This document shows positions 17,901-46,656 of a stretch of 64,000 bases of DNA, piece after piece. The stretch lies in the NCBI GenBank assembly GCA_044892505.1, contig CM097882.1, positions 460,660,001 through 460,724,000 of the forward strand. Direction: 5' to 3'. Positions within the stretch are counted from its first letter, which is position 1; every line of letters begins with the position of its first letter. A program made the position numbers and the translations under genes. Source of the DNA: Schmidtea nova (lineage: Eukaryota). The notes beneath the pieces were generated by a model. That model saw only the letters and a program-made list of their open reading frames with translations. It was not told where the DNA came from and ran no database searches.

Positions 17901-18536
17901 ATGGTGAAACTAGAGAATCTCCAAAGGAAGTCGATGATCGCGCACCCGATAAAGATAGAGGACACCATCCTTCGTAAGAAACGGCGCACCCGCTCCGTCA
18001 TCCGACCAAATACGAACCCAAACATCAGAGGAGAGAACGAAGCACCTCGAAAGGTTGCAGAAGTATCACGTCGCCACCTACGACGGTGGATGAGGGCGCA
18101 CATGAGCTCGGCAGCTAGTACCCCAGCTTGTGCGTTCGGACTACAGTTGCGGTGGGAAGGAGACACCGATTGGGTACCCTCCTCGGATCATAGCAAGCCG
18201 GAGAATCCCCGATGGTTCTATCAATTCTGCGATGAGTTACAGCAACCCCGCTGGCTGCTAAGCACCGGAATGATGTCCGGAAAAGAGCTACATCAACTCG
18301 GATACACGCTGCTAGACAGGCCTCGGTGTGGCGACACTGGGGAAGTCTTCGTTTATTCAAACGCGCCAGGAAGCGTGTCCTTGGACCAACACCCCGAGCC
18401 CAAAGACCATCGTCTCTGGGAGGTATTCATCTTTCGGGACAAGTTAAGTTGGAGCCCCGCCCCGGAGTTCTATTACGAAAGTGGAATCCGTCGTGATGAG
18501 AACACGGCCGACCAGGAATTGCGACCCTTCATCTAA
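17901..18536 (+). CDS. LTR-encoded ORF-A, 211 aa, unknown function
   Basis: Intact ATG-to-stop ORF, identical in the other LTR. CTTTAG acceptor-like site 7 nt before the ATG and AATAAA at about 18585. Confidence 0.65.
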   Translation: MVKLENLQRKSMIAHPIKIEDTILRKKRRTRSVIRPNTNPNIRGENEAPRKVAEVSRRHLRRWMRAHMSSAASTPACAFGLQLRWEGDTDWVPSSDHSKPENPRWFYQFCDELQQPRWLLSTGMMSGKELHQLGYTLLDRPRCGDTGEVFVYSNAPGSVSLDQHPEPKDHRLWEVFIFRDKLSWSPAPEFYYESGIRRDENTADQELRPFI

Positions 18537-18728
18537 ATCGCAAGGAAATCGATCACTCGAAGGAATATTTGATGTGTATTAAAAATAAATGTATTCATTT
18601 TTTGGGTTTTGTTATGTCTTTGAATGTATGGAGCGATCTGAGAGCGAAACACCTGTTTGATAATAAAGATAGTGACTGGGAGAACAGACAAACCATACAT
18701 AACCCGATTAATTGTACATTTTACAGAT

Positions 18729-19292
18729 ATGAGTGAACACCCAACTAGGAACTACAAACAAGAGGCTAAAGAGCACAAAGTACGATCGCAAGTCCTAGAA
18801 AACCGCTTGCGACAGCTAAACGAAGAGCACCAGCGGATTAAAGACACGTGGTTCAACCCAGAGAGGGTTAAAACCATCCTGCAAGCCAGATACAGGGCGG
18901 AACGAACAATCGACGAGCAAGCTAGGGAGGTAGCAGCACTAAAGATGGAGCTGTCGAATTACTTGAGGGCATCAACCCAGGAATTTATCAACGAGCAATT
19001 ACGCCCAGTGATCAGGGCTAGCACTTTTAACCGATGGGTGAACTCAATATCGATGACAACAAGTACCCAAACGGAAATAGAAACCATCCCAATCACAACT
19101 ACCCCAACATCCCCAATAATTCAGGAAGGCTCGAAACGAACAAAGAGACGGAATCGCTTGGGAGCGAAAAAGCGTAGGGAGAGACGCGCGTATGCAGATC
19201 GCGTAGGAATAGAGGTAGACTTGCTCAGTGGTCTATCTGAGCAAGAACTACTAAATGTAATCCGACCCTCTGTATTATTAAACTATAAATAA
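18729..19292 (+). CDS. LTR-encoded ORF-B, 187 aa from the first ATG; coiled coil plus basic NLS-like C-terminus
   Basis: TTTTACAG acceptor 2 nt before ATG 18729. A diverged homologue at 59490-59630 is 28/46 aa identical over the C-terminus. Confidence 0.75.
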   Translation: MSEHPTRNYKQEAKEHKVRSQVLENRLRQLNEEHQRIKDTWFNPERVKTILQARYRAERTIDEQAREVAALKMELSNYLRASTQEFINEQLRPVIRASTFNRWVNSISMTTSTQTEIETIPITTTPTSPIIQEGSKRTKRRNRLGAKKRRERRAYADRVGIEVDLLSGLSEQELLNVIRPSVLLNYK

Positions 19293-19682
19293 ATGTATAA
19301 AATGAATGACTTGACTCGTCTTGTCTGTGTGTAGAATGTCTGAAAATTGAATGGGACTAAAACCCGGATTCGTTTAAACTGCAGATATCTAAAAAGTAAA
19401 TTACCCTAGGACAATAGAAAGGAGCATAAGTGGGACCGAAAGAAAGCCACAGACACCTTCTAACGGTAGTGGTGGACCCGTGAATAAACAAGGGAATAGT
19501 AGCCGAAAGGTTGCTCACCTGCCTTGTCATTTCACAACGTTGACACAGCACCAACATGATGAGTAGTTAGGGATACATCATGGGTGTCAGCGGGGAAATG
19601 TTTTTATGTTGGCGAGATCACCCTAACATATAAAATCCTAAGGATCTCAGTTGTCAATCCAACCAACACACCAGCATAAATT

Positions 19683-19700
19683 TGGGGGCTCAGCCGGGAT
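19683..19700 (+). promoter_or_regulatory. Primer-binding site complementary to the tRNA-Pro 3-prime end
   Basis: TGGGGGCTCAGCCGGGAT, 6 nt after the LTR end. 16/18 identical to the canonical tRNA-Pro PBS TGGGGGCTCGTCCGGGAT. Confidence 0.88.
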
Positions 19701-20230: not shown

Positions 20231-20689
20231 ATGGAGAACAAAATAAAAGAAATGCAAACGTTTTTCGAGACAAATAACGAGACAATGGAGATAACAATGA
20301 GAAAGTTAAGACGACTCGAGGCAGGAGGATATCACAAACCGACAAACAGCACAGAAAAAGCGGAAATGATGATGAGCATAAGTAAGAATAAGATAACAGT
20401 GGATACAGCAACACGATATCAGTGGTATAGAGAAAGATTAAACAACCCTGAGATGAATATCGAGTGCCACAGGCTAGAACAACAAATTGCAACCAGACAC
20501 GATGAGTGGATAAGAATAACAACCGAACATACGAGACAATATCTGACGTGGTACATCTGTGAAATGAATAAGATACAGATAATGTTGTTGCCGTGTGGGC
20601 ATTTCCGATTCTGTAATGAGTGTAAAATAAATGAACGATGTCCTATGTGCAACCTTCCCGTATCCGAGAAAATAACAGTGTACTTGTAA
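20231..20689 (+). CDS. Small protein with a C-terminal IAP-type RING finger (no BIR), upstream of gag
   Basis: WYICEMNKIQIMLLPCGHFRFCNECKINERCPMCNLPVSEKITVYL matches the C-terminal RING pattern C..C......F.PCGH...C..C.....CP.C plus hydrophobic tail. The first Cys is replaced by Trp. Confidence 0.75.
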   Translation: MENKIKEMQTFFETNNETMEITMRKLRRLEAGGYHKPTNSTEKAEMMMSISKNKITVDTATRYQWYRERLNNPEMNIECHRLEQQIATRHDEWIRITTEHTRQYLTWYICEMNKIQIMLLPCGHFRFCNECKINERCPMCNLPVSEKITVYL

Positions 20690-22720: not shown

Positions 22721-23597
22721 GCCAACGAGAGACGTCAGTTGACTCAAAGGTGAGTAGAGATGAGAATTGAAATGAAGTAGTAAACGCAGTGTGAATAGGA
22801 AATAAAGCGAATAGTTGAGAAACAGAGTAGTCGACAGAAAAGGGGAAATTTGAACTCAGAGCCAGAGAAGCCTGAGAAAAGTAAAGGGGATAATAAGAGC
22901 GCTGAGCGACAAAGTAATTGGAGAACTGGGGAAAAGTAATTGGTGTATTTGATAATGAATAGATAATTGATGCGACTGCATAGATAATTTAAATAGACTT
23001 AAAATCAAGGGAAATGGGAAAAATGGGGATCTTCATGAATTATGACTACACCCGTGAGAGGGACGAGAAACACGATAACGGGGACGTATCGTGTAAGTGA
23101 TTATTTGTTTTAAGGAAACAAATCAATCAAGCAATTCAAAGCAATCTAGCAGTCAGAGCAATCAAAGGAAACAAATCAAAGAAGAAGCAAAGCAAAAGCG
23201 GAGTAGAAAATCAGTTGAGAATATAAGAAGTTGAGGAATAGACAAAATTGAGGGACGAGAAACAAGATCAGGTATAATACCAATCTTAACGGAAGCAGAA
23301 AGAAAAGCAGCAAAAAGGACAAGAACAGGTAATAAGCCTAAGCAACAAAAGAACAAACAAGTAGAGATCAGCGACAATTCGAGTAATAAAGAGAATCAAG
23401 AAGAAACCCCAGAGGATCCAGAAGTACGAAACGAAGTAGAAACGATAGACAGTGAACCAGTCAGTGAAAACATAACGAGAAGCGAATCAAGAGATAACGA
23501 AACAGAGAGTAGTGAAGAAGAAGAGTCGAATTCAGAAACAAGTGGTGAACTAGAAGCAAAGAAAACTAGTACAGTATTCCAAGACAGTGGAATCGGG

Positions 23598-26500
23598 ATG
23601 AGTGAACACAGAGAGGATCTGAGAGAAAAATTCAAGGGCGAACCATTTAATGGAGACGCCAGTAGATTAGACACGTTTCTAAAGGAATTTGGCATATTCG
23701 TGGATATATGCGGATGGAGTGCAGAAACGTTAGCGAATCGAATCCCGCTATACTTGAAAGATAGCGCGTTGGATCTGTATATCGAAAAGAGATCTGGAAG
23801 TAGTCCACCCAGAACGTGGGAAGCAATCAAGGAGTTCTTCCAACAGACGTTTGGGATAAATAAAGTGCTGAATGAAGCATTCGATGAGTTTTCAGCAAGA
23901 AAACAAAGGAGAAACGAGTCAAACGCGGTGTACGCAAGTGAATTAAGAAAGTTGGCGAAACTGGCGTTCAACAGAGGAAGCCCAGTAGACGAAGAATTGA
24001 TGACAGCGTTATTCGTACGAGGTCTCAGGAGACCTGACATCAGAGCACAAGTGGGATGCAAGGGATGTAAAACAGTAGATGAAGCGTTGGAAGCAGCCAA
24101 CCTATTCGAATTGCATATGGCAATGAACGACATGAGAATTACGGCGGTAATGGGAAAAACGACAGAAGATGAAGAACAAGGAAAAAGAAACATGAATCAG
24201 AGTATTCCCCATTCACAGAGATTGTTCAAAGAACCGCCAGCGCGGAAGAATAACGGATATATCACGGTGGACCCGAATGGAGGAAATAGCTACAATGACA
24301 GGCAGAATAGGCAATGTCAGACGTGTGGAAAAAACGGACATTGGCAACAAGAGTGTTTTCAGAATGTAGCCTGTAAACTGTGTGGACAAAAGGGTCACTC
24401 AGAAAATCGATGTTATGGGAAAACGTGTTACACATGTGGAAAAACCGGACACATGTCAAGAGACTGTAATCAACAGAGAAGTTGGTCAAACAGTGGAAAT
24501 AGACCGAATTACGGGAATCGACCAAGCTATGGGAATCAGGGTCAACAACGGAATAACCCAAACAGCAGTGCAAATGAAGCCAGTATGAAAGAAGCCAAGT
24601 TGAGACAGGAGGTATCCAGATTACACGAGATAATCGAAAGCATGGCAAAGGGAAGCCAGCAAGCGGCTCAACCAAAGATAAACATGATCCAGTTAATAGA
24701 AGCTGAGGCTGAAAGAGAAAATAGGGAGAGCCAACAGAAACATAATCAAGAATGGGCTAGAGTACGACGAGAAGAAGAACAAGTCAGGCAACAACGATTA
24801 CAACAGTTAAAAAAGGGAAATCCAAGGATCAACATGATGCGAGCAATGATGGAAGAGAAGCAGCAAGATGAGTCAGACGAGTTAGAAGTTAAAGAGAAAA
24901 GAAACGAAGAGCAGAAACAAGAAGAAGTGAATCAGGAAGTGGAAACTGCGGAACAGAGTAAAAAAGATGAAGAAGCAGAAAAAGAAACGAATCAAGAAGA
25001 AGAAGTGAGAATTAAACAAAGAGGAATGTTAGTGATCATGCCGAATGATCACGTGTGGCGATTCAAATACGATGTAAAAGAAGAAGTGGGAAGATTGTTC
25101 AATAAAGTAAATGAGATGATTCCGGGAGTAACGAAACTACCCAGAGAAGCATTCCTACAAACAGAGGATTTGCCAGAAGTGAAGTTAAAGATGACCGACA
25201 TATGGGAAGATATGGGAGTAACAGAGACGAAAATAAACGTGATGATCATCAGAGAGGTGGAACCGGAGAAAATCCCACCACCAGTGAAACATCAAACGCG
25301 TATCAGTAGAATATTTAAAGGAAAAATAAGACGAAGACGGATGGAAGAAATAGAAGAGTTAGAGAAAAGAATGGGAAAAGCTGAAATAACGGGAACCGAG
25401 AAGGAACTAATACAGGAAGTTAGCAAAAACGAAGCGAGACCAACCGCGCATATTGGGATGCTGAGATACCCAAGACAAGAGTTGTCAGATGAAGAAGACG
25501 ACAGCGAAGTTAGCAGTCTGGCAGGAAACATGCTAAAGGAACCGGAAAACGAGGATAAAAAGATGGAAGTAGTCGAGACGATAGAAACGATGTCAGTAAA
25601 GAAAGAGGAAATTCAGAAGCTGATGGATAACGCGTTGGAAGTAATCCATAACGAGGAGTTTATCGACGGGAAACGATACCGAAAGTTTATACGAGCAGTA
25701 TGGCAGATAAAGTATAAAGAGTGGTTACAAGAAAGAGAAGTGAGGGTAATACAAGAGTTCATAGAGAAGTTATTGAAAGAACCACTCAACGAATACGTAA
25801 TACAAATATGGATAAACGAGTGTTCACCGAGAATCTGGATAAGGAACCCAATGACGGATGGAATTTACAGATGGGTTGAGGACAGATTGGGAAGCTCGTA
25901 CAAAGACAAATTCATATATTCGGAAAACGGATTGGTGAGAAAAGGAACGCATATGATAGACACAGGCATATGGCCAGGAGAAATAACGACGTTATCAATA
26001 TGCAACACCAAAAAGGAAGAGAACTTACAAGGAATCGTCAAAGAAGCGAATACGTGTTACGAGATGAGAATAAAACCTCAGTTGATAGAGGCAAAAGAGA
26101 GAATCTTGGCGGAGAATTTGAATACGATGATAGAACAGATCATCCAACAAATCAAGAAACATCGAAAGGAATTGACGAAAAGCGAGTATGAGAATTTGAA
26201 GCAGTGTATCGAGAACATACGAGATACAAGTCAAACGAGACACTCAAATTTCAAAACGGACAAGCTAATTGCCAAGATGGGAAAAGAAATGTTTAAAAGA
26301 GGAGAGGTATCAGATCTGAAGATTACCGTGAGATTGCCGAACGAGGAGACAAGACAAATTGAAGTAATACCAGATAGTAAAGTGGGAGAAATAGTAGATG
26401 TCATCAATGAGACGATATTACAACGAGAACGGGAAGACGAATTCGAAGATGACATTGCGATAAAATACAAAGAACATATACTGAACGAACGTGACGAAAG

Positions 26501-29500
26501 ACGAGCGTACAAAATCGGCATATGGGATAATTATCAGACAATACATGTCATCAGAATGGATGACGTGCCAAGAGCAACACCAAGAGATGAGGAAAGGAAA
26601 AAGAAACGACAAGAGGACGTTATGCGCAAGTTGAGACAGATAGTGGAAATCTATCGGAACTGGCAGATGAAGCCAGAATGGGAGACAATATTGGGAGAAT
26701 TAGATCTTAACAGACGACGATTGACGCCAGTAGAGAAGCAATGGGATAACAAAGAGAAATGTTGGAAAGTGAAAAGAGGCGTGTATGAAGAAGATCCAGA
26801 AGAAGAAGACAGATATGAACTGAATACGAAACGGATATGTATGGTAACAAGGAGGTTATTACCAACGGACTTAGACGGACCAGAAACTGCAGTAATATGG
26901 GCAGAATTGGAGAAACAGAAAACGAGTGAATTAATCGAGCTGTTAAGAGGAAATACTCGGGGAAAAAGACAAACAATAAAAGGCTTAGCACAATTCATAA
27001 TCACAAATGGAGAAGACATAACGAACTTGAGAAAAGTAGCTAAAGCGATAGCAGAATACAAGAGAGTTAACGAGTGGTGTCCAGAGCAACTAGACGATGT
27101 AATAAAAAAGTGGAGAAACAAAGAGTTTGCGGAGGAAACGCCACAGAAAATACATTTGAGGATAATGTATCCGAATCAGAGAAAAGAAGAGTTTTGGGTG
27201 ATGCTAACAGAGAAAGTGAAAAGTATTAAAGAGAAACTGATGTATGAACTACCATTCCACCTGCAACATCAAGGACGATCGTTGGATAATAGTTTGGAAA
27301 TCTGGCTGACACCAGTACAATTGGATTTAATGAATACGCTAACAGTGGCACAGATAGTGGGTCAACCACTGAAGTTTAAAGAGGAAAAGAAAACGAAAGG
27401 AAGCATGAGTACACCGAGTCCGATGAAGTCAACAATGACCCCAGGAACAAGTTCGGGACAAGCAAGGACAACACCAATAAAAACGAGAGAGAGAACACCG
27501 CCAGAAGCGTATGACGTCGATGAGATACTAACAGATAGTGATGAGGCGATAGAAGAATTAACGAAGTTGACTCAAAAACCAACAGCGAACATTTTCGACA
27601 GAATAATAGAGATGCCAATAACGTCACCAGCAGAAATCGACGATCAAGGAGTGGAACAGGAGGTAGTCATAGAAATGGTAAACGAATCGGAAGACGAGCA
27701 AGAACAACCACAGTTTACTCAAGAAATGGAAAGATGGTTAGAACAGCGAGCGAACGAAGGAAGAGATGTTACGGAAGAAACAGGAAGAGCAACGAGATTT
27801 GTAGAAACCGGAACTGGAATGGAAAAACGACCAAGAGGAAGACCAAAGATAGATCCAACAACAGCAATTCCAAAGACAAGGGAAGAAAGGAGACAAGAGC
27901 AATGGGAGATTTGCTTGAAGAAACTGGATAAAATTGCAGAAATCAGAGGAAAAGAGGAGAATCAAGTTTGTCAAGGAGAAGAATGGCTCACCAAAACGAT
28001 AATGGATGTGTTAGCGATAATTGATCCAGAATTAAAGAATTTGTGGCGAATAAACGAACCTAGTACAAAGGCAAGGATGCTACACAATGCAATAGCACCA
28101 ATTATGCCAGAATTGATAAAGGCAAAAACAAAATCGAATCATCTAGATTGGCAAGGAACCACGATGTTAATAAAAAGGCTACTTAACGGAGCAGAAACGG
28201 ACAGCAAATATCTAGTAGCAATCTCGTATACGATATACAATTTGTTAACGCTAAGCCGAGGAAGTCCGAAGTCAAGTCCGATGGGAAGACATATCAAGAA
28301 CACGGCGATGATTATCGAGAAGGAAATTGAACCATATATCCTCAGAAAAGGAGGATGGGAAAAGTTCATAAAAGAGAACCAGACAAAAGAAGGGTCTAAC
28401 GTGATGAGAAAGAAACTCGAAGGAGTATTGAGGGAAATGGAGAATAGACAAACGATGCAAGGAAACGGAAGATCGACGTTGAATCTAAATTCGATAATCA
28501 TGATGATGTTAGTATGGTTGTTAAGCACGGAAGGTGTAACAACATTTGAAGTATTTGATTGTGATCAAATGAAGTTAGGAGAAAAGTACTCATTGAGAGG
28601 TACGGAGCAATGCAAAGATGCAACTCCAGTAGAGTTGAGAGAGATCAAAAAGGAACAATGGTATAACGTGTATCAAGAAGCAGAACTAATAAAGACAATG
28701 GTGAATGAATGCAAAGTGCAAAAGACGAGATTCGCATTCTATTGTGGGAGAGGACATTACTCAGCAATTGTCATGCCAGGAACGGAAAGAGAACCAATCG
28801 TGTTACAAGGAGAAGATTGTGAAGCATTGTTTAAACATGGAGAAGTAACAACAAGGGATAAAATCAAGATAAAAGGAAAACCAGGAATGATGTTACAGCA
28901 GACGTATTATGTAGCAGGACGAATTACGGGAGGAGAAGGGTATTGTCAAGGAGAAACCTACCCAATATTTGGAGTACCTGCGACCAACTTAGTGGTAATG
29001 GATACGTACATAGTCGAACTGAAAAGTTACGAAGCATTCTTCGAACCAACAACAGGAGAAATGAAAACGTTATCCATGTGTAAAATTGACAGAAGCATGT
29101 GTCAAACGGGAATGTCAACATTGGTGTATAAACCAAAAGTGAACGAATGTCAATTACAACTGCTACAAGGAGCAAAGTTCGACGAAATTCAAGGAAAAAC
29201 ATTCCAAGAAGAAGATGATGATGACAAAGCTAGAGCAAAACATCTCAAAGAGGCTTTAGAGAATAAAAGACAATTGAGACCAGATCATAAAGAAAAACGG
29301 ATAGAGATGAGAACCACACCAACAGTGTTGATAACCACAAATCAGGATGTGGGCATGAGATTCATAAAAGGGAAAGCAACCCTTAAGTGCAGTACAACAG
29401 TATACGAAACAAATTATCCAGGAATATACGTGTCAAAGCAGGAAGTGCCTAATGCGAAACCCAAGATCGACACAATGGATATCAAGCTACACTTGTATGT

Positions 29501-31823
29501 GAATAATAAAATGGATTTCTTATTCCATAGAGGACAAGCCTCATTACAAAAAGTGTACTATGATCTGATAAATAACGATTGTATACTGAATCGGGAAATA
29601 TTAAAGACAAAGTTGGCCGTAGCGATTACGAATCCAGATAGCGCGATGCCGTTATTACCACTGAGAGAAGGACATTTCGGAAGAGTGGTCGGAGAAGCAA
29701 TGTACGTATACATTTGCGAAAAAACACACGCATCGCTAGCAGCAACAACGCAGTTGAAACCTGGACAATGTACAAATGAATTAGAAATCGATTATAAAGG
29801 AAAAGTACGATACGTTCAACCGGTGACGAGAATCACCAATCCACCAGGGTTTGAACCAAATCCATTCAACTGTAGTAATGCGTACGGACCACTTTATCAG
29901 AAGCCAGATGGCAAATGGGTTATGTTCCCAGGAAGAACCGAAGTATTAGCACCAAGAGAATTCGAACTAATGCAGTTGTCAAAGGATAGACAGTTCAGCG
30001 ACGTAGATGTCTCAAACAACGGAATCTATAGTCCAAAGGATTTAGAAGCAGCAAGACAGAATATACTATTCCCGGCAAGAAGAGAAGCATTACTGTCAAA
30101 TATCGTAACGATAACGGGAGGAACGAATTATCGAGAAGGACCAAATTACGAACTGCTGTTGTCACCGGCACATTTCAAGAAAGCCACAGAAAATATGATG
30201 AAGGCAATGTGGGGGAGATTCCTGATATTCGGACAAATGATGGCTGGAATACTGGGTGTTATATTGATAATACAAATCGTCAGAGTGATAATAACGCAAA
30301 TGTTAGCGTGTTTCGATATCTACAAAAGAGAAAAGAAAGTGAATTGGAAGATGGTAGTAGGATTTTTACCATTCCTTGCGAAAACGATGGTGTTACACGG
30401 ACACTCAAAAGACATACATCGAATAAAGAGGTTGTTGAAGATACTTGCAAAAATGAGAGGAACAAACGAAGATGTCGGAAGGAAATTCAAAAAGATAATG
30501 CAAGACGAGCAAGCAAGGCGACAATTAAAGAAAGAAAGGAAAGGATTATGGGAAAGAGTGAGAGGATATCGAACGCAGGATGACTCAAGCAATGATGATG
30601 ATGATGATGACAATCGAGGAGGACAAGCGAATATAAACCAGATTCCACAATACACCGAAAAGAGTGCAGTTGAGAATTGGAGATACAGCGCTCCACCTCA
30701 GTCAATGTATAACGAACCGATATACAAAGCGAAGCCGAATATGATGCAGATGATGCCGATGACAAGTATATACCCGATAATTCCAGAAGGATGCAAAGTA
30801 AAACGATGCAGAAGTGTAGACCCGTTGGAAGACACGCACACGATAGCGGTTATGTCCACAAATATGGGACCGATTTTAACAACAACCGTAGAAATAAACG
30901 GAAGAGAAATTGAAGCTATGATCGATACAGGCGCGAATATTTCGGCGATCGACATCAACTATATACCAGAGAAAAGCCAAGGAGAAATTGAGAAAACGAA
31001 TGTACATGTAATCGCGTGCAGCCAAGAGACAGTAGAAGTAGCCGGAAGATGGTTCGTAAAAATTAAGCATCGAGGTGCAGAAATCAACACGTACATCGCT
31101 GTAATACCATCGCTGAGTGTACCATGTATTATTGGAACTGACCTGATGCCAGACCTGTTCAAGGAAATCGTAATTGATCTAGGAGCAATGAAACTAAAAG
31201 ATAGAACAGGAAAAATCTGCAGGATGAAAGTTAAAGTGGCAAGTGCGGAACAAATAGTAGTACCAGCGAGACACGAAATGATGTGCTATGTCAAGATCGA
31301 TTCAACAATAAAGGGAGATATGATATTCGAACCAAGTAAGAAGTTCGAAGCAAAGAAAGAATTACCAATGGCAAGAGAATTGGTTACGATAAACCAAGAA
31401 GGAGAGATACCAATTAATCTGGTAAACTTCGATGAAGAGGACAAGATAATATACGAGAATGAGAGATTGGGTAAATTGACACCCATGTCCGAAATCGAAA
31501 TACCAGACAAGAACGAGAAAAGCAAAGACGAATTACCATGGAAAATCGACAGTGTGTTGTTAGACGAACGACAAAAAGAACAGTTACAAAAACTGTTGAT
31601 GGAATATAAAGATATATTCGCAGCATCCGATTTAGATCTGGGAACATGTGATGTAACATTACACACGATACCGTTGACGGACGAAACGCCAATCGCATTA
31701 CGACCATACAAACTGGCAGAAGCTCAAAAAGCAGTGGCAGAAGAAGAGGTACAAAAGATGTTAGATGCAGAGGTCATCGAACCTAGTTGCTCACCCTGGC
31801 AATTCCCAGTGGTGATGGTGTAA
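23598..31823 (+). CDS. Polyprotein part 1: Gag (capsid, 3 CCHC knuckles), ubiquitin-like domains, AT-hook, Bcl-2-like domain, class III envelope, aspartic protease, start of RT
   Basis: Capsid-like FNGDASRLDTFLKEF. Knuckles CQTCGKNGHWQQEC, CKLCGQKGHSENRC, CYTCGKTGHMSRDC. AT-hook KRPRGRPK; BH2-like YILRKGGWEKF; protease MIDTGANISAI. Ends at a TAA inside the RT motif PVVMV*KKDG. Confidence 0.92.
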   Translation: MSEHREDLREKFKGEPFNGDASRLDTFLKEFGIFVDICGWSAETLANRIPLYLKDSALDLYIEKRSGSSPPRTWEAIKEFFQQTFGINKVLNEAFDEFSARKQRRNESNAVYASELRKLAKLAFNRGSPVDEELMTALFVRGLRRPDIRAQVGCKGCKTVDEALEAANLFELHMAMNDMRITAVMGKTTEDEEQGKRNMNQSIPHSQRLFKEPPARKNNGYITVDPNGGNSYNDRQNRQCQTCGKNGHWQQECFQNVACKLCGQKGHSENRCYGKTCYTCGKTGHMSRDCNQQRSWSNSGNRPNYGNRPSYGNQGQQRNNPNSSANEASMKEAKLRQEVSRLHEIIESMAKGSQQAAQPKINMIQLIEAEAERENRESQQKHNQEWARVRREEEQVRQQRLQQLKKGNPRINMMRAMMEEKQQDESDELEVKEKRNEEQKQEEVNQEVETAEQSKKDEEAEKETNQEEEVRIKQRGMLVIMPNDHVWRFKYDVKEEVGRLFNKVNEMIPGVTKLPREAFLQTEDLPEVKLKMTDIWEDMGVTETKINVMIIREVEPEKIPPPVKHQTRISRIFKGKIRRRRMEEIEELEKRMGKAEITGTEKELIQEVSKNEARPTAHIGMLRYPRQELSDEEDDSEVSSLAGNMLKEPENEDKKMEVVETIETMSVKKEEIQKLMDNALEVIHNEEFIDGKRYRKFIRAVWQIKYKEWLQEREVRVIQEFIEKLLKEPLNEYVIQIWINECSPRIWIRNPMTDGIYRWVEDRLGSSYKDKFIYSENGLVRKGTHMIDTGIWPGEITTLSICNTKKEENLQGIVKEANTCYEMRIKPQLIEAKERILAENLNTMIEQIIQQIKKHRKELTKSEYENLKQCIENIRDTSQTRHSNFKTDKLIAKMGKEMFKRGEVSDLKITVRLPNEETRQIEVIPDSKVGEIVDVINETILQREREDEFEDDIAIKYKEHILNERDERRAYKIGIWDNYQTIHVIRMDDVPRATPRDEERKKKRQEDVMRKLRQIVEIYRNWQMKPEWETILGELDLNRRRLTPVEKQWDNKEKCWKVKRGVYEEDPEEEDRYELNTKRICMVTRRLLPTDLDGPETAVIWAELEKQKTSELIELLRGNTRGKRQTIKGLAQFIITNGEDITNLRKVAKAIAEYKRVNEWCPEQLDDVIKKWRNKEFAEETPQKIHLRIMYPNQRKEEFWVMLTEKVKSIKEKLMYELPFHLQHQGRSLDNSLEIWLTPVQLDLMNTLTVAQIVGQPLKFKEEKKTKGSMSTPSPMKSTMTPGTSSGQARTTPIKTRERTPPEAYDVDEILTDSDEAIEELTKLTQKPTANIFDRIIEMPITSPAEIDDQGVEQEVVIEMVNESEDEQEQPQFTQEMERWLEQRANEGRDVTEETGRATRFVETGTGMEKRPRGRPKIDPTTAIPKTREERRQEQWEICLKKLDKIAEIRGKEENQVCQGEEWLTKTIMDVLAIIDPELKNLWRINEPSTKARMLHNAIAPIMPELIKAKTKSNHLDWQGTTMLIKRLLNGAETDSKYLVAISYTIYNLLTLSRGSPKSSPMGRHIKNTAMIIEKEIEPYILRKGGWEKFIKENQTKEGSNVMRKKLEGVLREMENRQTMQGNGRSTLNLNSIIMMMLVWLLSTEGVTTFEVFDCDQMKLGEKYSLRGTEQCKDATPVELREIKKEQWYNVYQEAELIKTMVNECKVQKTRFAFYCGRGHYSAIVMPGTEREPIVLQGEDCEALFKHGEVTTRDKIKIKGKPGMMLQQTYYVAGRITGGEGYCQGETYPIFGVPATNLVVMDTYIVELKSYEAFFEPTTGEMKTLSMCKIDRSMCQTGMSTLVYKPKVNECQLQLLQGAKFDEIQGKTFQEEDDDDKARAKHLKEALENKRQLRPDHKEKRIEMRTTPTVLITTNQDVGMRFIKGKATLKCSTTVYETNYPGIYVSKQEVPNAKPKIDTMDIKLHLYVNNKMDFLFHRGQASLQKVYYDLINNDCILNREILKTKLAVAITNPDSAMPLLPLREGHFGRVVGEAMYVYICEKTHASLAATTQLKPGQCTNELEIDYKGKVRYVQPVTRITNPPGFEPNPFNCSNAYGPLYQKPDGKWVMFPGRTEVLAPREFELMQLSKDRQFSDVDVSNNGIYSPKDLEAARQNILFPARREALLSNIVTITGGTNYREGPNYELLLSPAHFKKATENMMKAMWGRFLIFGQMMAGILGVILIIQIVRVIITQMLACFDIYKREKKVNWKMVVGFLPFLAKTMVLHGHSKDIHRIKRLLKILAKMRGTNEDVGRKFKKIMQDEQARRQLKKERKGLWERVRGYRTQDDSSNDDDDDDNRGGQANINQIPQYTEKSAVENWRYSAPPQSMYNEPIYKAKPNMMQMMPMTSIYPIIPEGCKVKRCRSVDPLEDTHTIAVMSTNMGPILTTTVEINGREIEAMIDTGANISAIDINYIPEKSQGEIEKTNVHVIACSQETVEVAGRWFVKIKHRGAEINTYIAVIPSLSVPCIIGTDLMPDLFKEIVIDLGAMKLKDRTGKICRMKVKVASAEQIVVPARHEMMCYVKIDSTIKGDMIFEPSKKFEAKKELPMARELVTINQEGEIPINLVNFDEEDKIIYENERLGKLTPMSEIEIPDKNEKSKDELPWKIDSVLLDERQKEQLQKLLMEYKDIFAASDLDLGTCDVTLHTIPLTDETPIALRPYKLAEAQKAVAEEEVQKMLDAEVIEPSCSPWQFPVVMV
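27960..28380 (+). other. Bcl-2-like domain within the polyprotein
   Basis: BH2-like EIEPYILRKGGWEKFIKE (compare W I xxx GGW xx F). Weaker BH1-like segment IKRLLNGAETDSKYLVAISYTI at the expected spacing. Boundaries approximate. Confidence 0.6.
28488..30320 (+). other. Envelope glycoprotein, chuvirus-G / herpes-gB-like class III fusogen
   Basis: Signal-like SIIMMMLVWLLSTEG, then FEVFDC...EQC and a Cys-rich ectodomain. CILNREILKTKLAVAITNPD...GHFGRVVGEAMYVYIC and GIYSPKDLEAARQNILFPARR resemble chuvirus-type G motifs. TM segment FLIFGQMMAGILGVILIIQIV. Boundaries approximate. Confidence 0.8.
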
Positions 31824-34376
31824 AAGAAGGATGGAACTCAAAGATTCTGTATCGATTACAGACGATTGAATGCAGTTACGAAAAGAGATACGTACCCATT
31901 GCCAGACATAAACGAAATGTTGTTGACGTTACAAGGAGCAGCTTATTTCACGTCACTGGATTTAAAGAGCGGATATTGGCAGATCAAAATGAAAGACGAA
32001 GATAAAGAAAAGACAGCATTTACAATCGGACGAGATCTGTACCAATTCAAGAAAATGCCGTTTGGGTTAACAAACGCGCCAGCATCATTCCAGAGATGCA
32101 TGAATTTCGTAACACATGGCATAAAACAATGCATGGTGTATATCGACGATCTATTGATCTACTCCGCAACATTCGAAGATCACTTGCAAGACATCAGAAA
32201 TGTGTTCGTGAAATTAAGACAATGGAAACTGAAATTAAAGCCGTCAAAGTGCGATTGGGCAAAAGAAAAAGTGACATTCTTAGGTCACATTGTCTCAGCA
32301 AAAGGAAAAGAACCAGATCCAAGGAATATCGAAAAGGTCAAAGAATGTCCACCACCAAAGACAGTGACTCAAATACAAGAATTTTTGGGATTGTGTGGAT
32401 ATTATCGAAAGTTCATCAAGGACTATGCAGGAATATCAAAGCCAATGCAAGAATTAGTAAGACAAGACGTGTCGTTTGTGTGGGGAGCAGAGCAACAAGC
32501 AGCATATGAAATATTGCGAGACAAACTGATTACAGCACCAATATTGGTCCATCCAGATTTTAAGAAGCCATTTTTGTTGGCAACAGATGCAAGTGGATAC
32601 GCAGCAGGAGCAGTACTAGGTCAATTTGACGAAGAAGGCAAGGAAAGAGTAATCGGATATTACAGTCGAACCTTCAGGAAGCATGAAAAGAATTACTCAG
32701 TCACGGAAAGAGAAGCCTATGCGATAATATTGGCAATCAAGCATTTCAAATACCTATTGTGGGGTCATGAGATATATATTACAACGGATCATCAACCATT
32801 GGTATGGTTAGGTCAACATAAAGAATCATCAAGTAGATTGATGCGTTGGGCGATGCAACTACAAGAATACTCGCCATTCATAAAGTTTAAAGCAGGAAAA
32901 GCAAATGCAAACGCGGATTGCATGTCAAGGTTTACATTTCCAGAATTGGTGAACCTGAATGCTCTAAAAATATGTGCATTAATAGCGGAAGATTTGGATT
33001 TCAGCGAATTAAGGAAAGATCAACTCGAAGATGAGGAGTTGGGATTGATCAGCAAGTATTTGAAAGAAAGGGAAATAGAAATATTCGGCAAGAACCAAGT
33101 GTTGCGCGAACATATGCAGAAATACCAACATAGATACGTGATGGAAAAAGGATGGTTATTGATACAAGATGGAGAACGGAGATTAATGTGCTTACCTGCG
33201 AATAGGCGAAAGGAAATCATGACTCAATATCATGACGGAAAATTAGGCGGACATATGTCAGCAAAAAAGACAAGCGGAAGACTGAGACAAAAGTATTTTT
33301 GGCCAACCATGGAAGATGATGTGAAAGAATGGATAAAGAACTGCTTAACCTGTGCGACAAGAAAGAACGTCGGAACGAAGTGGAAAACACCACTAAAACC
33401 AATGCCAATACCTGCAGAACCGATGGCGACGATAGCAATGGACGTAGTTGGGCCATTGCCGGAAAGTTTAAAAGGAAATCAGTACATATTAGTAGTCACG
33501 GACTATCTAACAAAGTTCCCAGAAGCGTTCGCAATACCAGATCAAAAAGCAAAAACAGTCGCGAGAATATTGGTGGAAGAGATATGCTGCAGATACGGAA
33601 CACCAAAGAAAATCCTAACGGATCAAGGAACAAATTTCATGAGTGAAATATTGGACGAAGTTACGAATTACTTCAGAATCGCGAAATTACGAACATCCCC
33701 ATACCATCCACAAACGAACGGTCAAACAGAAAGGTTCAATGGAACATTGATACGCATGTTGTCGAATTACGTCAGTAAACATCAAACTGACTGGGACGAA
33801 TATATCAACTTATGTTTGATGGCATACAGAATGTCAATTCATGCGGCAACAAAGCTAAGTCCATTTCAACTGATGTACGGAAGAGATTGCAACTTACCGA
33901 TCGATTTGGAATACCAACCACCATTATCACAGTACATGGAGGTTGACGATTACGTGACGAAGTTCAAAGAAAGAATGCAAGAAATCTGGAAAACGGCGGA
34001 ACTGAACATCAAGTTCTATCAAGAAAGTTATAAGGATCTCCATGATCAGAAAAAGAATGTGAAAGCACATGATTTAAAAGTTGGAGATTGGGTGATAATT
34101 GAGACACCAGAGATAATACCCGGTACGGTCAAGAAACTCCAACGACCAGGCAAGGGGCCATACGAAATAACAACCGTAAACGAAAACAATGTGCGAGTAC
34201 GATTGGTGAACAATCCATTGGTAAGACCAATATACGTGAATGCATGTCGATGCAGGAAAATACCAAAGACAGCAACTCTATTACCAGAGAAACGGGTAAT
34301 GACAAGATCACAGACGGCGAGAATTAATATGTTGCGAGTACAACAAAAGCCGCAAACAAGTCTAGAAGACAAGTGA
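31824..34376 (+). CDS. Polyprotein part 2: RT, RNase H, integrase (same frame as part 1)
   Basis: RT: RFCIDYRRLN, DLKSGYWQI, MPFGLTNAPASFQR, YIDD. RNase H: TDASG, TDHQPL. IN: H..H/C..C, DVVGP, TDQGTNF, ERFNGTL, GPY. Confidence 0.96.
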   Translation, partial: KKDGTQRFCIDYRRLNAVTKRDTYPLPDINEMLLTLQGAAYFTSLDLKSGYWQIKMKDEDKEKTAFTIGRDLYQFKKMPFGLTNAPASFQRCMNFVTHGIKQCMVYIDDLLIYSATFEDHLQDIRNVFVKLRQWKLKLKPSKCDWAKEKVTFLGHIVSAKGKEPDPRNIEKVKECPPPKTVTQIQEFLGLCGYYRKFIKDYAGISKPMQELVRQDVSFVWGAEQQAAYEILRDKLITAPILVHPDFKKPFLLATDASGYAAGAVLGQFDEEGKERVIGYYSRTFRKHEKNYSVTEREAYAIILAIKHFKYLLWGHEIYITTDHQPLVWLGQHKESSSRLMRWAMQLQEYSPFIKFKAGKANANADCMSRFTFPELVNLNALKICALIAEDLDFSELRKDQLEDEELGLISKYLKEREIEIFGKNQVLREHMQKYQHRYVMEKGWLLIQDGERRLMCLPANRRKEIMTQYHDGKLGGHMSAKKTSGRLRQKYFWPTMEDDVKEWIKNCLTCATRKNVGTKWKTPLKPMPIPAEPMATIAMDVVGPLPESLKGNQYILVVTDYLTKFPEAFAIPDQKAKTVARILVEEICCRYGTPKKILTDQGTNFMSEILDEVTNYFRIAKLRTSPYHPQTNGQTERFNGTLIRMLSNYVSKHQTDWDEYINLCLMAYRMSIHAATKLSPFQLMYGRDCNLPIDLEYQPPLSQYMEVDDYVTKFKERMQEIWKTAELNIKFYQESYKDLHDQKKNVKAHDLKVGDWVIIETPEIIPGTVKKLQRPGKGPYEITTVNENNVRVRLVNNPLVRPIYVNACRCRKIPKTATLLPEKRVMTRSQTARINMLRVQQKPQTSLEDK

Positions 34377-34484
34377 AGGGAGATAATAGACATCAAAGAA
34401 CTGGCAAAGAAAACCAGAGAAATTATACCAGAATGGAAATGGTGGCACGATTTCAATATACTGTCAGAAGTTCGAAAGAATGTA

Positions 34485-37400
34485 ATGGACTATGCGAAGG
34501 ATAGAACAGCACATCCAATAACAAGAACGCTGCTAGAGGAAATCCCTCAAACTTTGAATCTACAAGACAAAGACGGTAATACCGCGTTGCACAATGCAAT
34601 CAAGCACAGTGGAAACGAAAAAGTGAAGGAAATTGTAGAGATGATACTCGAAGGTGGAGGAGAAATTGACAAAGTGAATTGGGAAGGAATCACTCCACTT
34701 ATGATGATGACGATTCACGGAAGAAACGATGAAATAATCAAGCTATTCGGAAACACCAGATCGAATTGGATGGCAAAAGATAAAGAAGGACGAACATTCT
34801 TGAATCATGCAATTGACAGAGCAAATCACCGAATACTGAAGTATATTATGGAAAATGCCACGTGGGAAATCGATGAACTAACCAGAGGATCTATCATGAA
34901 ACAAGCAATCGGGGTAAAGAACAGTAAAACCTGGAGAATATTGCTAAAGTGGAAACGACCAGAAGGAGATTCGTGGGTCATAGATTGCAATGAAGTATTC
35001 ACAAGAGGAGAAAATGCGTTACTGAAACATCTATTAGAAGTAACATACGATCCAAAAACACTTGCAGTGTTGATAGCGAGAGATACGTTACGGGTTAGCG
35101 AAAACCCAAGAGAATACAAGTTGGAAGACAGAAAGAAAGAACTATTCGGATTAATCAAGAAATGGTGTGATAAACAATGGAATCCGGATATGAGCTTCGA
35201 ACATTTCTATGACATCCAAAAGCAGCACAAAGAAATAAGCAAGCGATATAAAGAGCTGATAGAAGCATTGAAATATGGACAGTTCTTCAGACAAGCAGTG
35301 TATCAAGACCAACGAATGAAACAGATGCAAACGCGAATAAGAAGCAAAGCAGTGTTGTTCAATGCAAAAGCTGATTATCAAGAGAGATTAGACGCAATCG
35401 TAGCAAAAGCACAGGAAAAATTATCGGAATTCAAAGAGAATAAAAACTCGTTGGAAATACTAGGAGCGATTACAGAGAAAGTGCACAGATATGCACAAGG
35501 GGATTATAACGAGATCGACATAGAAACGATCAAAAATCAAATGCCAGTGGCATTCCTATTATCAAAGGATGGGAGATTGCCGATACACTGGGCATTACGT
35601 CGAAAGAAAGAAAACGAAGTGCTGGAAATAACGAAAGCGATGGTCAAGTGCGAAGCAGACATGAATACGGTTGACGATAACGGAGATACAATCATGATAA
35701 TCGCAGCAAGAAAGAAGACGAAATGGAAAGTGCTAAATGAATTATACGAAGCAGGAGCAAAAATCGAAGGGAAAAATGGAAAGAATAATTCCATCATAGA
35801 TATCGCAATACAGTGGAACAACTTCGAGATGATCAAGTTCATAAAGTCCATCAAGAGACAAGAGGACATAGAATACCTGGCAAATAACGTAAAGAAGTTC
35901 AGCCTGACAGTAATGATACACGACATAGAGAAAACAAGAGCATTATTAACATGGGTGAATCCGAGCACCAAGGAACAGGCGTTCAAGGTCAATGACCATA
36001 TGGAACAGAATCAGAATTGGTGTATCAGAAGCGCGTTATTAAGACACAAAAAGCCAGAGATAGTAGAAGAATTCTTAAAGAGAAGAGATGTGAAGTTCAC
36101 GAACAATCCAAAGGAACCCGAACGAACGGGAAGATGGAAAGACTTGTTCAGGAAGTATGTGAATGAGTGGGCAAAAGCCAAAGAAACGATCAAGCAAAGT
36201 AGACTAAAAGACATAGAACCATCCAAAGATATGGAAATACGGGAATTCGAGTCTAGCACACTCGCGGTTCAAGCGTATGAAAGATTGATTGAAGAAATTA
36301 ATGTCGAGGACGACATTTTCAAAGGACCAGGGGGTGGTTACAGAGATTTCGACGACAAAAGCAACAACGAAGAGAACAACGAAGACAAGGACAACAAAAG
36401 AACGGAGGATAATGAGAAAGAAAGACAAGAAGAACCGAAGTCAACGAGAAACGACAAGAAAGGAGAAGCAGAAGAACGAGAAAACAGTGGAACAAAAGAC
36501 GAACATGCGAATTATGGAAAACGAACAGGAAGTCTACTTTTGAGACCAGAAATGTTGTGTATTGCGATATTGATAACAATCATCGGACAAGGAGAAGCCA
36601 AGAAACAATACGTCACGCTAGAGATAATCAGAGGAAATGAAGTATACGAAAGAATATGCTGGAAAGAAAACCTGAGGAAAAACGATACGCTGAAGTGTAT
36701 ATTGTCAGATTTGAAGCGAGACGTCATCCAAATCAAAGGATTGGAGAAAGAAAAGTCATACATAATATGCGCAATAAAGCAGAGAGGAGAACCAAAAGCA
36801 CCTCAAGTAACTGCATGCCAATTATACAAAGCAACGGAAGCGCTGAAGATACAGAAATGGATTGAGAAAAGAAGCGAAGAGACAACGAGAAGAACAGAAG
36901 TGGAATCAGAGAAAGGGAAGAATCAATCTGAAGCAGAAGAAGGAATCAGAAACCGAACAGAGAAAGAAAGAATAACCAAAAATCCAGCGGGCAAATTAAC
37001 ATTCCAACCAGAATTGATATGTGTAGCATTAATATTAATCCTCATTAAGAGAATCATGGAGGACATAGATATCAGCGTGATGACGTTAGTAAACATCCAA
37101 GATCAACGAACAACGAATGGAAGATGTTGGGGACGAAACAATGAGGTAATTGGAATCAGCGAAACAAGAGAAATAGTAGAGGCGGAGACAAATGAGGAAA
37201 TAGAGATAACTGAAATGGAGACAGATAGAAAATGTGAACTATGTCTCATGGAAAAGGCAGCAAACGGAAACAGACCAGGAACAAGCGAGTGTAAAGTGTT
37301 CCAAGCAAAGGAGATAATTGAATTCCCAAAAAGAAAGAAACAAGATCAAGAAACGATTGCGAATGAAGTAGTAACCGTGGAGATAAAAAACATTGGTCGG

Positions 37401-38465
37401 AGAACAATTGGGATGTGTTGGAGAAAATACATCGGAGTATCGACCAGTCACGTACTACCGCAATGCAGAACGAGAGAACGAGGAATCCCGTTTCAACTAA
37501 ATGGATTCGAAGTCGGACAAGCCTACGAAATTTGCGTAATTCGAAGAATAAGAGAAATAATACAAAGAAGCCTGGAGTGCAAACTGTACAAGACGCCAGA
37601 GCAAATTAACGGAACAAGAACGATCGAAATGGGAAGAAGTCGACAGAGGAAAAGAAAGTCAAGAAGAACCACGACAGCCAACAGTCAAGGAGTTCAACAG
37701 GTAACAACAGAAAGGATGACAATAGAAAACGAACCGGAATCAACAACGTTGATAATATGGAAGATCCATAAAAAGGTCCTAGAAATCTGTTGGACATTAA
37801 TGCCAAACAGTATGGGAAAGTCTCCACGAAACTGTCAAAAGACATCAAATGACAAAAAGGAAACAATCGAGGTAGAAATGAGGAAGTTGAAAACAAATGC
37901 AGAATATGTAGTGTGTGCAATTGAAGAAGTGGATACACAAGGAAATCCACAAGAAAGGTGCGAAACCTACTACACACCGATAAAGAGGAGAATCAAAAAG
38001 TTAGAATTCCGAGAATTGAGTCAGAAGAGAGAACAAAACGAGAAGGAAGAAACAATACCAAATCAACAAGAAAAATGGGAACCAGAGAAAGTGATCGAAG
38101 AAGTCAGACGGAGACAACAACAATATGAACAATGGGAAGCGGAATGGAAAGGTCAATATGGCGTGATGATAAACCAAAGTGAGACTCCAAGAAGGAGCAT
38201 TGGGAAAACAATAATGGGATTAATCAGCATGGGAGTATTCATAGCGTGTATACCGCTGATAACGATCATGATAGTATGTTGGAGATATGGCATGAGAAAT
38301 AAGACCATAGCAGTAAAATGGCCGGACGTAAAGGTCACGAATTACAACATAAAACTACCAAAAGAAGTACGAGAAGAGCTGAAAAGACGATCAAAACACG
38401 AAGAGATGTGGGTACAGATCGAGGACGAGGAACTGTACGAAGGAAAACCAGTGATAGTTGTATAG
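34485..38465 (+). CDS. Ankyrin-repeat plus FN3-like membrane protein (same frame as pol; only a TGA at 34374 separates them)
   Basis: Ankyrin motifs DKDGNTALHNAI, GITPLMMM, GRTFLNHAI, GRLPIHWAL, NGDTIMIIAA. Two signal/TM-like segments, three repeats of (ICW...I.GL.....Y.ICAI) resembling FN3 strands, and a C-terminal TM segment. Confidence 0.8.
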   Translation: MDYAKDRTAHPITRTLLEEIPQTLNLQDKDGNTALHNAIKHSGNEKVKEIVEMILEGGGEIDKVNWEGITPLMMMTIHGRNDEIIKLFGNTRSNWMAKDKEGRTFLNHAIDRANHRILKYIMENATWEIDELTRGSIMKQAIGVKNSKTWRILLKWKRPEGDSWVIDCNEVFTRGENALLKHLLEVTYDPKTLAVLIARDTLRVSENPREYKLEDRKKELFGLIKKWCDKQWNPDMSFEHFYDIQKQHKEISKRYKELIEALKYGQFFRQAVYQDQRMKQMQTRIRSKAVLFNAKADYQERLDAIVAKAQEKLSEFKENKNSLEILGAITEKVHRYAQGDYNEIDIETIKNQMPVAFLLSKDGRLPIHWALRRKKENEVLEITKAMVKCEADMNTVDDNGDTIMIIAARKKTKWKVLNELYEAGAKIEGKNGKNNSIIDIAIQWNNFEMIKFIKSIKRQEDIEYLANNVKKFSLTVMIHDIEKTRALLTWVNPSTKEQAFKVNDHMEQNQNWCIRSALLRHKKPEIVEEFLKRRDVKFTNNPKEPERTGRWKDLFRKYVNEWAKAKETIKQSRLKDIEPSKDMEIREFESSTLAVQAYERLIEEINVEDDIFKGPGGGYRDFDDKSNNEENNEDKDNKRTEDNEKERQEEPKSTRNDKKGEAEERENSGTKDEHANYGKRTGSLLLRPEMLCIAILITIIGQGEAKKQYVTLEIIRGNEVYERICWKENLRKNDTLKCILSDLKRDVIQIKGLEKEKSYIICAIKQRGEPKAPQVTACQLYKATEALKIQKWIEKRSEETTRRTEVESEKGKNQSEAEEGIRNRTEKERITKNPAGKLTFQPELICVALILILIKRIMEDIDISVMTLVNIQDQRTTNGRCWGRNNEVIGISETREIVEAETNEEIEITEMETDRKCELCLMEKAANGNRPGTSECKVFQAKEIIEFPKRKKQDQETIANEVVTVEIKNIGRRTIGMCWRKYIGVSTSHVLPQCRTRERGIPFQLNGFEVGQAYEICVIRRIREIIQRSLECKLYKTPEQINGTRTIEMGRSRQRKRKSRRTTTANSQGVQQVTTERMTIENEPESTTLIIWKIHKKVLEICWTLMPNSMGKSPRNCQKTSNDKKETIEVEMRKLKTNAEYVVCAIEEVDTQGNPQERCETYYTPIKRRIKKLEFRELSQKREQNEKEETIPNQQEKWEPEKVIEEVRRRQQQYEQWEAEWKGQYGVMINQSETPRRSIGKTIMGLISMGVFIACIPLITIMIVCWRYGMRNKTIAVKWPDVKVTNYNIKLPKEVREELKRRSKHEEMWVQIEDEELYEGKPVIVV

Positions 38466-42497: not shown

Positions 42498-44009
42498 TGT
42501 TGGGCCAGCCAAATCGAGCAGCATCTGAAAATAATACACAATCAATAAAATAAATTAAATACAGAATAACAACAAAATAAATTACCAACACCAAAGCGTA
42601 ACAAAATAGGCGGCAACATCTAAAAGAAATAAAATATTAATCAAAACAACAAAAATCTTCAAAACTCACTCATGCGAAGCAGATAAAATTGGAATATGAC
42701 AGCGCGTGGGCGGATGTCACCGAAGACCTAAAGCAAAATCAAATAAAAATTAAATCATACAAAAAATAAACTTACCGCATGATTAACCAAACAAATCGGC
42801 AAGTTAAGTTAGGCAGCAAAAAGCCGACAACATGAAAAATGAAGCAAACATACACACATACTCGATGCTGATTGGCTAACCAACAACACCGGTTGAGTAT
42901 AAATACTGAAGTCAAATCAGTATTTGACAATGTTATTTTTACCAAGTGTAACTTGCAGTTGAGCACTGAGAACATTGTAAATCCAACTTGAAGGAGAAAT
43001 AAAAGGTAATTGTTGTGTGTTAGATTTTTACTTTAAACCCTCATAATTATAATGGTTAACCATATTAAAATCCATAAGGTTTCCGGAGGCCTAACAGCCT
43101 GACGGATTCTCTGGCCTCTCAGCGCAACACAATCTTTCGGTTGTGAGGTGCTGATGCGGCGGGACCATAGGTGTATTAAATATTTGGAAAGCGGAAGGGG
43201 TTAAATGCACATAGGGTATCGAGTAAGACCTAATGAACATGAACGAAATCAAGGTGGAAATGATCTAATATAAACGTTATGCATCACGATGATAGGGTAT
43301 CGAGTATAAACTGGTAGTCGTAAACGAGCGTAAAGTGAAGCCCGTTTTGTAGGGAGGATATATATCGTGGCGAAGTCTAGGCGAGGGATAGACGTGTAGA
43401 AAATAAAATTGGTGTAGATGAATTAGATGACGACAAGGGTAGGTATATGTCGACATTAGCGCGTACGAGTTCGGGCATAGTGAACCTAGTATCAAGGGTT
43501 AAGTCAGTTGTGTTTAGTCGCCAGGATAGATGATAAATAAACTACAGGCATTGAGAACCGATAAAATGATGAACCCCAGTGAGTAAGGACCCCAGGAACT
43601 TGCAAGAATTACCCGACATGGTATGATCATTACTAGTTAAATGAGGAAGTAATCGAAAACGACTGATGAGATTGGATGTGATTAAATAGCATTATCGATA
43701 AATAAAAACTGTTAAAGTTGAGTGATTGAACCTGATTGTTGAAAATTAAGTATAATAGTGATCTGATTTATAAATGCAACCAATCGTGCGTAGCGGAATC
43801 GTCGAAAATAAAACGCGTAGCACATTAACTTCAAGCTACCATCTAACACGACCCACGTCAAGTCCACAATGATTCCGGCAACAATCTAGAAGGTACCCCT
43901 CGGACCTACAGACCTTAAAAATTTAAGACGGGTGGGTTGACTAATATAAATAGGCCCGTTATACCATAGAATCCATAGTTAACAAACAACCATCTTCTTT
44001 AGAAATACT

Positions 44010-46593: not shown

Positions 46594-46656
<63 letters not shown>

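Follow-up and report, generated by a model that had tools for sequence, protein, structure and literature searches.

In a 64,000-nt stretch of the Schmidtea nova genome (GenBank assembly GCA_044892505.1, contig CM097882.1, positions 460,660,001 to 460,724,000 of the forward strand; hereafter the window), we describe one copy of a giant Ty3/gypsy element whose principal reading frame spans some 15 kb and is interrupted by stop codons. We conclude that the family to which this copy belongs very probably possesses one unbroken gene of some 5,000 codons, and that the two stops inside the gene, at 31821 and 34374, are the window copy's own defects. The copy itself is a young, locally broken member of a multi-copy giant Ty3/gypsy family.

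From 23097 to 38465, the frame that opens at 23097 contains only four stops, namely TGA at 23232, TAA at 31821, TGA at 34374 and the terminal TAG at 38463; this count reproduces exactly the frame and the three upstream stop positions given in an initial annotation of the same DNA. Over positions 23000 to 38600, there are 12 stops in this frame as compared to 488 and 233 in the other two forward frames, and its openness is therefore far beyond chance. It comprises 4,955 codons when counted from the first ATG (23598), or 5,076 when counted from 23235. The TAA falls within the reverse transcriptase (RT) domain, where it had originally been placed, while the last TGA is separated by 36 open codons from an ATG at 34485, with which the ankyrin part could begin.

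Sister copies of the element were collected by several routes. DNA searches of the same genome, which each scored 40 matches out of 294, 693 and 156 candidates, returned the 30 best loci apiece, including the window's own; 20 copies that looked full-length, overlapping with these sets, were fetched; and a protein search scored the best 150 of 1,848 candidates, leaving 149 matches once the window copy was set aside. Codons 31821 and 34374 proved to be sense codons in all 29 other copies from the DNA searches, and again in 20/20 fetched copies, where each site showed one identical residue; TGA 34374 was also missing from one further copy. Being absent from all surveyed copies, both stops are private to the window copy. 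The initial annotation had proposed a comparison of copies at the three codons, had read the TAA in RT as a copy-specific change or a sequencing error, and had offered a simple mutation as one of two options for TGA 34374; the copy-specific TAA and the mutation option were supported, whereas the third codon, TGA 23232, was fixed in 29/29.

The remaining features of these copies likewise speak for one long gene. The ATG at 23598 and the terminal stop were kept in every fetched copy, six of which are open from one to the other (4,961 to 4,970 codons). The other 14 are broken by stops or frameshifts, their nine stops all lying at differing places. Among the 149 protein-search matches, 27 have frames of at least 5,000 codons (26 of them stop-free, one having a TAA in the match) and 87 have frames of more than 1,400 codons. 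Not one has a frame of 1,355 to 1,370 codons, the length expected from a stop at 34374.

These observations bear directly on the second option raised for TGA 34374, a programmed readthrough linking pol to the ankyrin/FN3 protein. Such a readthrough would fix how much Pol is made relative to a Pol-ankyrin-FN3 fusion. The frame does continue beyond the stop, and the 36 open codons before the ankyrin ATG are under selection, yet such selection is equally expected from a frame that is simply open. The stop is missing from all the other copies counted above, frames of the length it implies were not found, and the region 3′ of it (34374-34474) shows no stable structure in a fold model without pseudoknots (z = 0.03). 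Programmed readthrough at this site is thus refuted by the survey of the scored copies, and we accord it a negligible probability. Gammaretroviruses, at their gag-pol junction, and some long terminal repeat (LTR) elements, between pol and env, do use stop-codon readthrough; the likeness of the window to such systems is confined to an in-frame stop between two long frames. To our knowledge, the stops of known readthrough elements are fixed across all active copies, whereas the stop at 34374 occurs in one copy. Readthrough of the TAA at 31821 was rejected as well, given a stop in 0/29 other copies. Of the ~5,000-aa polyprotein with readthrough that was first envisaged, the single frame joining pol to the ankyrin/FN3 part stands while the recoding does not, the sister copies having sense codons at both sites; the element has no significance as a readthrough case, for there is none.

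A different way to reconcile the window with a single-gene family would be that base-calling errors in the assembly account for one stop or for both, the copy being open in the animal. Both stops are known solely from this assembled copy, and its LTRs, 99.8% alike, mark it as a young insertion. However, the two stops are substitutions among 70 codons at which the window copy differs from all 20 fetched copies (42 synonymous, 26 non-synonymous and 2 stops), and private breaks are also found in the 14 broken copies mentioned above. Moreover, the LTR divergence (6/3,288) predicts ~0.8 new stops, such that two or more are compatible with the age of the insertion (P = 0.20). We consider assembly errors improbable.

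As to the TGA at 23232, which had been listed with the others as an interrupting stop, its position is correct but its role is a different one. The frame upstream of it (23097-23231) holds no ATG, and its variants among 30 copies (3 synonymous, 13 non-synonymous, 2 stop; ratio 0.92) are those of a neutral sequence. Because the upstream frame lacks a start and varies neutrally, this TGA precedes the coding region and does not interrupt it. A readthrough at 23232 was rejected for the same two reasons.

The polyprotein encoded by the family is predicted to be arranged in the order Gag, Env, protease, RT, RNase H, integrase, ankyrin repeats, FN3-like repeats and membrane anchor, with an Env transmembrane segment near 30243. 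We measured selection along the frame as the ratio of shared non-synonymous to synonymous variants among 21 copies in 15 segments. This ratio lies between 0.01 and 0.20 in all 15 (env 0.01, RT 0.01, integrase 0.03, ankyrin 0.08, FN3 region 0.13, tail 0.20), and it is 0.20 in the 36 codons between TGA 34374 and the ankyrin ATG (12 vs 10, p = 2e-4), a pattern that indicates purifying selection throughout the whole frame. In the spacer between Gag and Env (24471-28370), ubiquitin-like and BCL2-like stretches are suspected by eye alone, with no support from Pfam, PDB or Atlas. The motif ARINML, located just before the last TGA as initially described, is a plausible cleavage site for the element's protease. 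In the extended form ARINMLR it is retained in 23/29 copies, and ARINML-like motifs occur six times in frame, often between domains, as compared to 0.2 times in shuffled sequence.

Beyond the ankyrin blocks, hydrophobic segments resembling signals lie near 36534 and 36996, and one predicted to span the membrane lies near 38229. The same part of the polyprotein contains four repeats of ~85 residues each, which share an invariant T, CW, C and C. A model of the fourth repeat, built from the four-repeat alignment, reached a predicted local distance difference test (pLDDT) score of 76.5, and its best matches in VIA-align were FN3 domains (root-mean-square deviation 2.5 over 77 residues), with a Z of 8.6 that is only slightly above the level reached by common beta-sandwiches. 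The top Foldseek matches were FN3, too (best E 0.03, none below 0.001), and Atlas scored the FN3 region at 0.77 to 0.82, which is lead level. Sequence searches of Pfam and PDB did not detect FN3, the whole region folded from a single sequence gave a pLDDT of 36, and a homologue search with the ankyrin-FN3 part returned 42 matches, all of them generic ankyrin proteins. On the strength of the modelled repeat, the post-integrase repeats are likely FN3 domains, the label they had been given at the outset.

Several points weigh against the reading of an intact gene translated as one chain. The best-scoring matches and full-length-looking copies were chosen, which biases the share of open copies upward. 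Transition bias is ignored in the selection ratio, for which two non-coding controls returned 0.92 and 0.36; ratios around 0.2 therefore carry less weight than those below 0.1. The ARINML-like pattern was devised after viewing the sequence, and it is found in only 3/21 relatives, with one match. BCL2-, ubiquitin/SUMO- and dUTPase-like motifs have no Pfam matches, nor does the BCL2-like stretch have any in PDB sequences or Atlas. Translation as a single chain and all of the cleavages are deduced from the sequence. Finally, the ATG at 34485 is kept in 29/29 copies, and a separate ankyrin product, made by splicing or re-initiation besides the polyprotein, is possible. In the stronger form of this idea, the ankyrin-FN3 part would, despite the fused frame, be made mainly from a dedicated spliced mRNA that begins at ATG 34485; the accessory open reading frames (ORFs) of the element are probably expressed in this way. 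Apart from the conservation of this ATG, an AG lies ~20 nt upstream of it, and the accessory ATGs at 39032, 40534, 41768 and 18729 sit 1 to 2 nt after an AG. The tight AG-ATG spacing is, however, lacking at 34485, where an out-of-frame ATG is found just upstream; the codons preceding it are selected in frame, and in no other copy is the frame closed after integrase. We regard a predominantly spliced origin as unlikely and favor the single polyprotein.

In the scheme we propose, the family gene would be translated as one polyprotein with no recoding, and this chain would cross the membrane of the endoplasmic reticulum several times. Cleavage by host signal peptidase at hydrophobic segments within the chain would free Env, and the FN3 membrane protein(s) of the C-terminus, into the secretory pathway. 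In the cytosol, Gag, Pol and the ankyrin part would be separated by the protease that the element itself encodes, possibly at recurring I-N-M-type motifs; a cut at ARINML would free integrase from the ankyrin part. The window copy would terminate inside RT and be unable to make its own RT or integrase. A second membrane protein behind integrase in the same polyprotein would, if confirmed, bear on the cell-to-cell movement of envelope-carrying elements.

Related polyproteins in public assemblies share 47 to 50% identity with the window over RT-integrase and have env and pol in one ORF. A tree of RT-RNase H sequences, built from 21 env-bearing matches, 11 other gypsy matches and the window, groups the window with 17 of the 21 env-bearing relatives (99/99), four env-bearing rows falling outside. 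This RT clade includes P0079, P0086, P0087, P0093, P0094, P0095, P0104 and P0107, among others. Since 16 of its 17 members extend 357 to 1,401 residues beyond integrase, with at least one hydrophobic segment (11/17 with two or more), a fused post-integrase tail made without a stop is a trait of the clade. The cargo differs from the window's, though, comprising extra protease domains, an Ig domain, and ankyrins before or after pol; behind integrase, ankyrins were seen in P0093 and P0104 and the Ig domain in P0107. The relatives are also shorter than the window's polyprotein, with up to 4,057 aa among the matches retrieved (the search covered up to 4,250). As side observations, P0086, P0087, P0091, P0093 and P0095 contain two or three aspartic-protease-like domains, some after integrase, and P0106, filed under a bacterial metagenome bin, is probably mis-binned.

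A giant polyprotein of this type is already known from the published Burro elements, of which the element in the window is likely a further member, with a different cargo order. According to the Burro section of PMC6431247, these elements exceed 30 kb and carry ankyrin, MATH/TRAF, BIR and BCL2-like motifs; their ORF1, of 4,873 or 5,140 aa, includes an in-frame env that follows gag and precedes pol. Judged by that description, the element in the window resembles Burro/GYPSM1 of Schmidtea mediterranea and a Burro-like element of Dugesia tigrina in its size of ~30 kb, its LTRs, its one ~5,000-aa ORF and its many copies, as well as in a Gag with three CCHC knuckles, a mononegavirus-like env in frame between gag and pol, ankyrins and MATH/TRAF. 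The placement of TRAF differs, being a separate downstream ORF in the window, inside ORF1 in S. mediterranea, and upstream in D. tigrina (PMC6431247). Similarly, Burro1 of S. mediterranea is described with BIR and RING (IAP-like), whereas the window has an upstream RING ORF and no Pfam match to BIR in the 12 ORFs scanned, some short ORFs lying outside the scan. Judged from published descriptions, the element is likely of the Burro kind. The published BCL2-like, ubiquitin/SUMO-like and dUTPase-like calls in Burro-like elements are described as made with HHpred; a 2026 study of Burro1 IAP-like cargo is cited by PMC13465017, and passages of PMC8532177 and PMC11410931 mention Burro expression and size. 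FN3 repeats, a post-integrase membrane protein and an AUG-free N-terminus go unnamed in the Burro section of PMC6431247; the primary Burro papers and supplements may describe them. GAG-ENV-POL errantiviruses, with an env of the herpes simplex virus gB type, have been reported from Platyhelminthes, Nematoda and Bryozoa (PMC13524379), and share with the window a Ty3/gypsy pol, env before pol and several intact copies per genome. Its passages on these elements give gene order only, and the words 'polyprotein', 'ankyrin', 'fibronectin' and 'Burro' are absent from the main text.

The coding region may begin upstream of its first AUG. About 115 selected codons precede ATG 23598, with 13 synonymous as compared to 2 non-synonymous variants in 23274-23400 (p = 3e-8) and a weaker signal in 23400-23598 (ratio 0.50, p = 0.07). 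The 483 nt from 23115 to 23597 hold no ATG in any frame, while shuffles predict ~7 (P = 0.0006) and all 30 like-sized ORF blocks contain 8 to 20; this holds in 28/28 scorable close copies and 17/20 diverged ones. An ATT at 23247 is conserved in 29/29 close and 20/20 diverged copies, its full context AAAATTG in 19/20. No indels were seen at 23019-23900 in 29 copies, and an in-frame 28-codon duplication of a basic segment (window 23277-23360) defines a subfamily of 10/20 diverged copies (L178-L187). With a start at 23247, an RSG-type motif would lie close to the N-terminus, an arrangement also seen in several relatives.

Directly upstream lies a nearly invariant non-coding element (23035-23114) with zero shared variants among 20 diverged copies. 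Its hairpin has a z of -2.2, the loop could pair with an upstream CCCGT, and its donor- and acceptor-like sites are 22 nt apart. Rfam gave a single chance-level match over 19600-23700 and none for the element. A search with the 7-bp hairpin stem (23071-23093) produced 3,095 genome matches, of which 15 examined loci (L190-L204) represent an unrelated repeat and so provide no covariation. We dropped the idea of a hammerhead because the core does not fit the hammerhead consensus. Because selected codons precede the first AUG in an ATG-free stretch, leaky initiation at AUU is suggested, and we tentatively propose, at somewhat less than even chances, that recoding takes place at the start of the gene and not in its middle: ribosomes, placed behind the invariant element either by splicing to an acceptor or by internal entry, would scan the 483 nt and initiate leakily at AUU 23247, the FN3 membrane protein ending the same chain. 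The product of such a start would be a polyprotein of 5,072 aa, extended at its N-terminus by a basic segment, alongside the 4,955-aa AUG form. Under this proposal, a single ORF would supply capsid, fusogen and enzymes together with a protein that is a candidate for attachment or for an immune decoy, an arrangement found in outline across a wider clade of gag-env-pol elements. Two Gag isoforms arising from a non-AUG start in a gypsy element would, if confirmed, be useful to specialists. A possible rival is a spliced first exon, in which the donor-like 23093 is joined to the AG at 23241 or 23271. Such a junction keeps the phase, yet the 23241 AG is lost from the two most diverged copies, in which residues before 23271 remain similar. 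In contigs from four sequencing runs of one study, which show presence but not absence, 22700-23800 contained no GT..AG joint.

The element as a whole occupies 29,397 bp (16389-45785, + strand) and has a GC content of ~40% as opposed to 23 to 30% in its flanks. Its membership in Ty3/gypsy is seen in LTRs with TG...CA ends, which differ from each other at 6 positions, in a target-site duplication, and in the Pfam order protease-RT-RNase H-integrase. Table 1 lists its features.

Table 1. Features of the giant Ty3/gypsy element, with window coordinates
Feature	Position	Strand	Basis or remark
Target-site duplication AGTT, 4 bp	16385..16388, repeated 45786-45789	+	
5′ LTR, 3,288 bp	16389..19676	+	
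Primer-binding-site-like stretch	19683..19700	+	sequence inspection; putative likeness to a tRNA-Pro site
Upstream accessory ORF, 152 aa, C3HC4 RING at C-terminus	20231..20689	+	Pfam zf-C3HC4_3 E 6e-8
Nearly invariant non-coding element	23035..23114	+	short upstream ORF, hairpin, donor-like GTAAGT (23093), acceptor-like TTTTAAG (ends 23114)
Fixed TGA immediately upstream of coding region	23232..23234	+	29/29 close, 18/20 diverged copies
AUG-free N-terminal extension	23247..23597	+	purifying selection; candidate AUU start 23247
Gag: first in-frame ATG, capsid (Retrotrans_gag), three CCHC knuckles	23598..24470	+	Pfam; knuckles by eye
Long spacer	24471..28370	+	purifying selection
Env: Monjiviricetes-type fusion glycoprotein, in frame between Gag and protease	28371..30330	+	Pfam PF24664 E 2e-67
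Aspartic protease	30882..31154	+	Pfam RVP
TAA in RT, private to window copy	31821..31823	+	0/29 other copies, 0/20 fetched
RT, RNase H, integrase zinc finger and core	31824..33710	+	Pfam
ARINML, possible protease target separating integrase from the ankyrin part	34317..34334	+	predicted
Post-integrase TGA, private to window copy	34374..34376	+	copy survey
Two ankyrin-repeat blocks	34458..36107	+	Pfam Ank_2 E 6e-20
Hydrophobic and FN3-like region	36534..38290	+	
Four FN3-like repeats	36600-36851, 37062-37322, 37359-37604, 37728-37985	+	
Natural terminal stop of polyprotein	38463..38465	+	stop at same codon in 20/20 copies
TRAF-like ORF: RING-zinc finger-MATH	39032-40444	+	Pfam; MATH_2 E 6e-27
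Coiled-coil-like ORF	40534-41694	+	downstream accessory
Small membrane protein ORF	41768-42292	+	downstream accessory
3′ LTR, 3,288 bp	42498..45785	+	

The accessory ATGs at 39032, 40534, 41768 and 18729 look, from the AG preceding them, as if each had a splice acceptor of its own. The last of these belongs to one of two LTR-internal ORFs, of 211 aa (17901-18536) and 187 aa (18729-19292), which have equivalents in the 3′ LTR (44010-44645 and 44838-45401) and show no clear family in Pfam. Open frames of 266 codons (23396-24196) and 355 codons (38335-39402) are found on the minus strand, the latter with no clear family. In the leader (21400-21950 and 22238-22728), we noted a 19-bp tandem array and at least four spaced copies of a small hairpin motif, two of which were scored for folding (z of -2.4 and -2.9).

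The window also contains other elements. In a separate element at 10501-13283, perfect inverted ends of 202 bp enclose a frame of 807 codons whose RT match is weak (E 1e-7), and a palindromic piece at 46310-46607 is related to this element. At 61653-64000, 386-bp inverted repeats flank a 537-codon frame with two RING matches.

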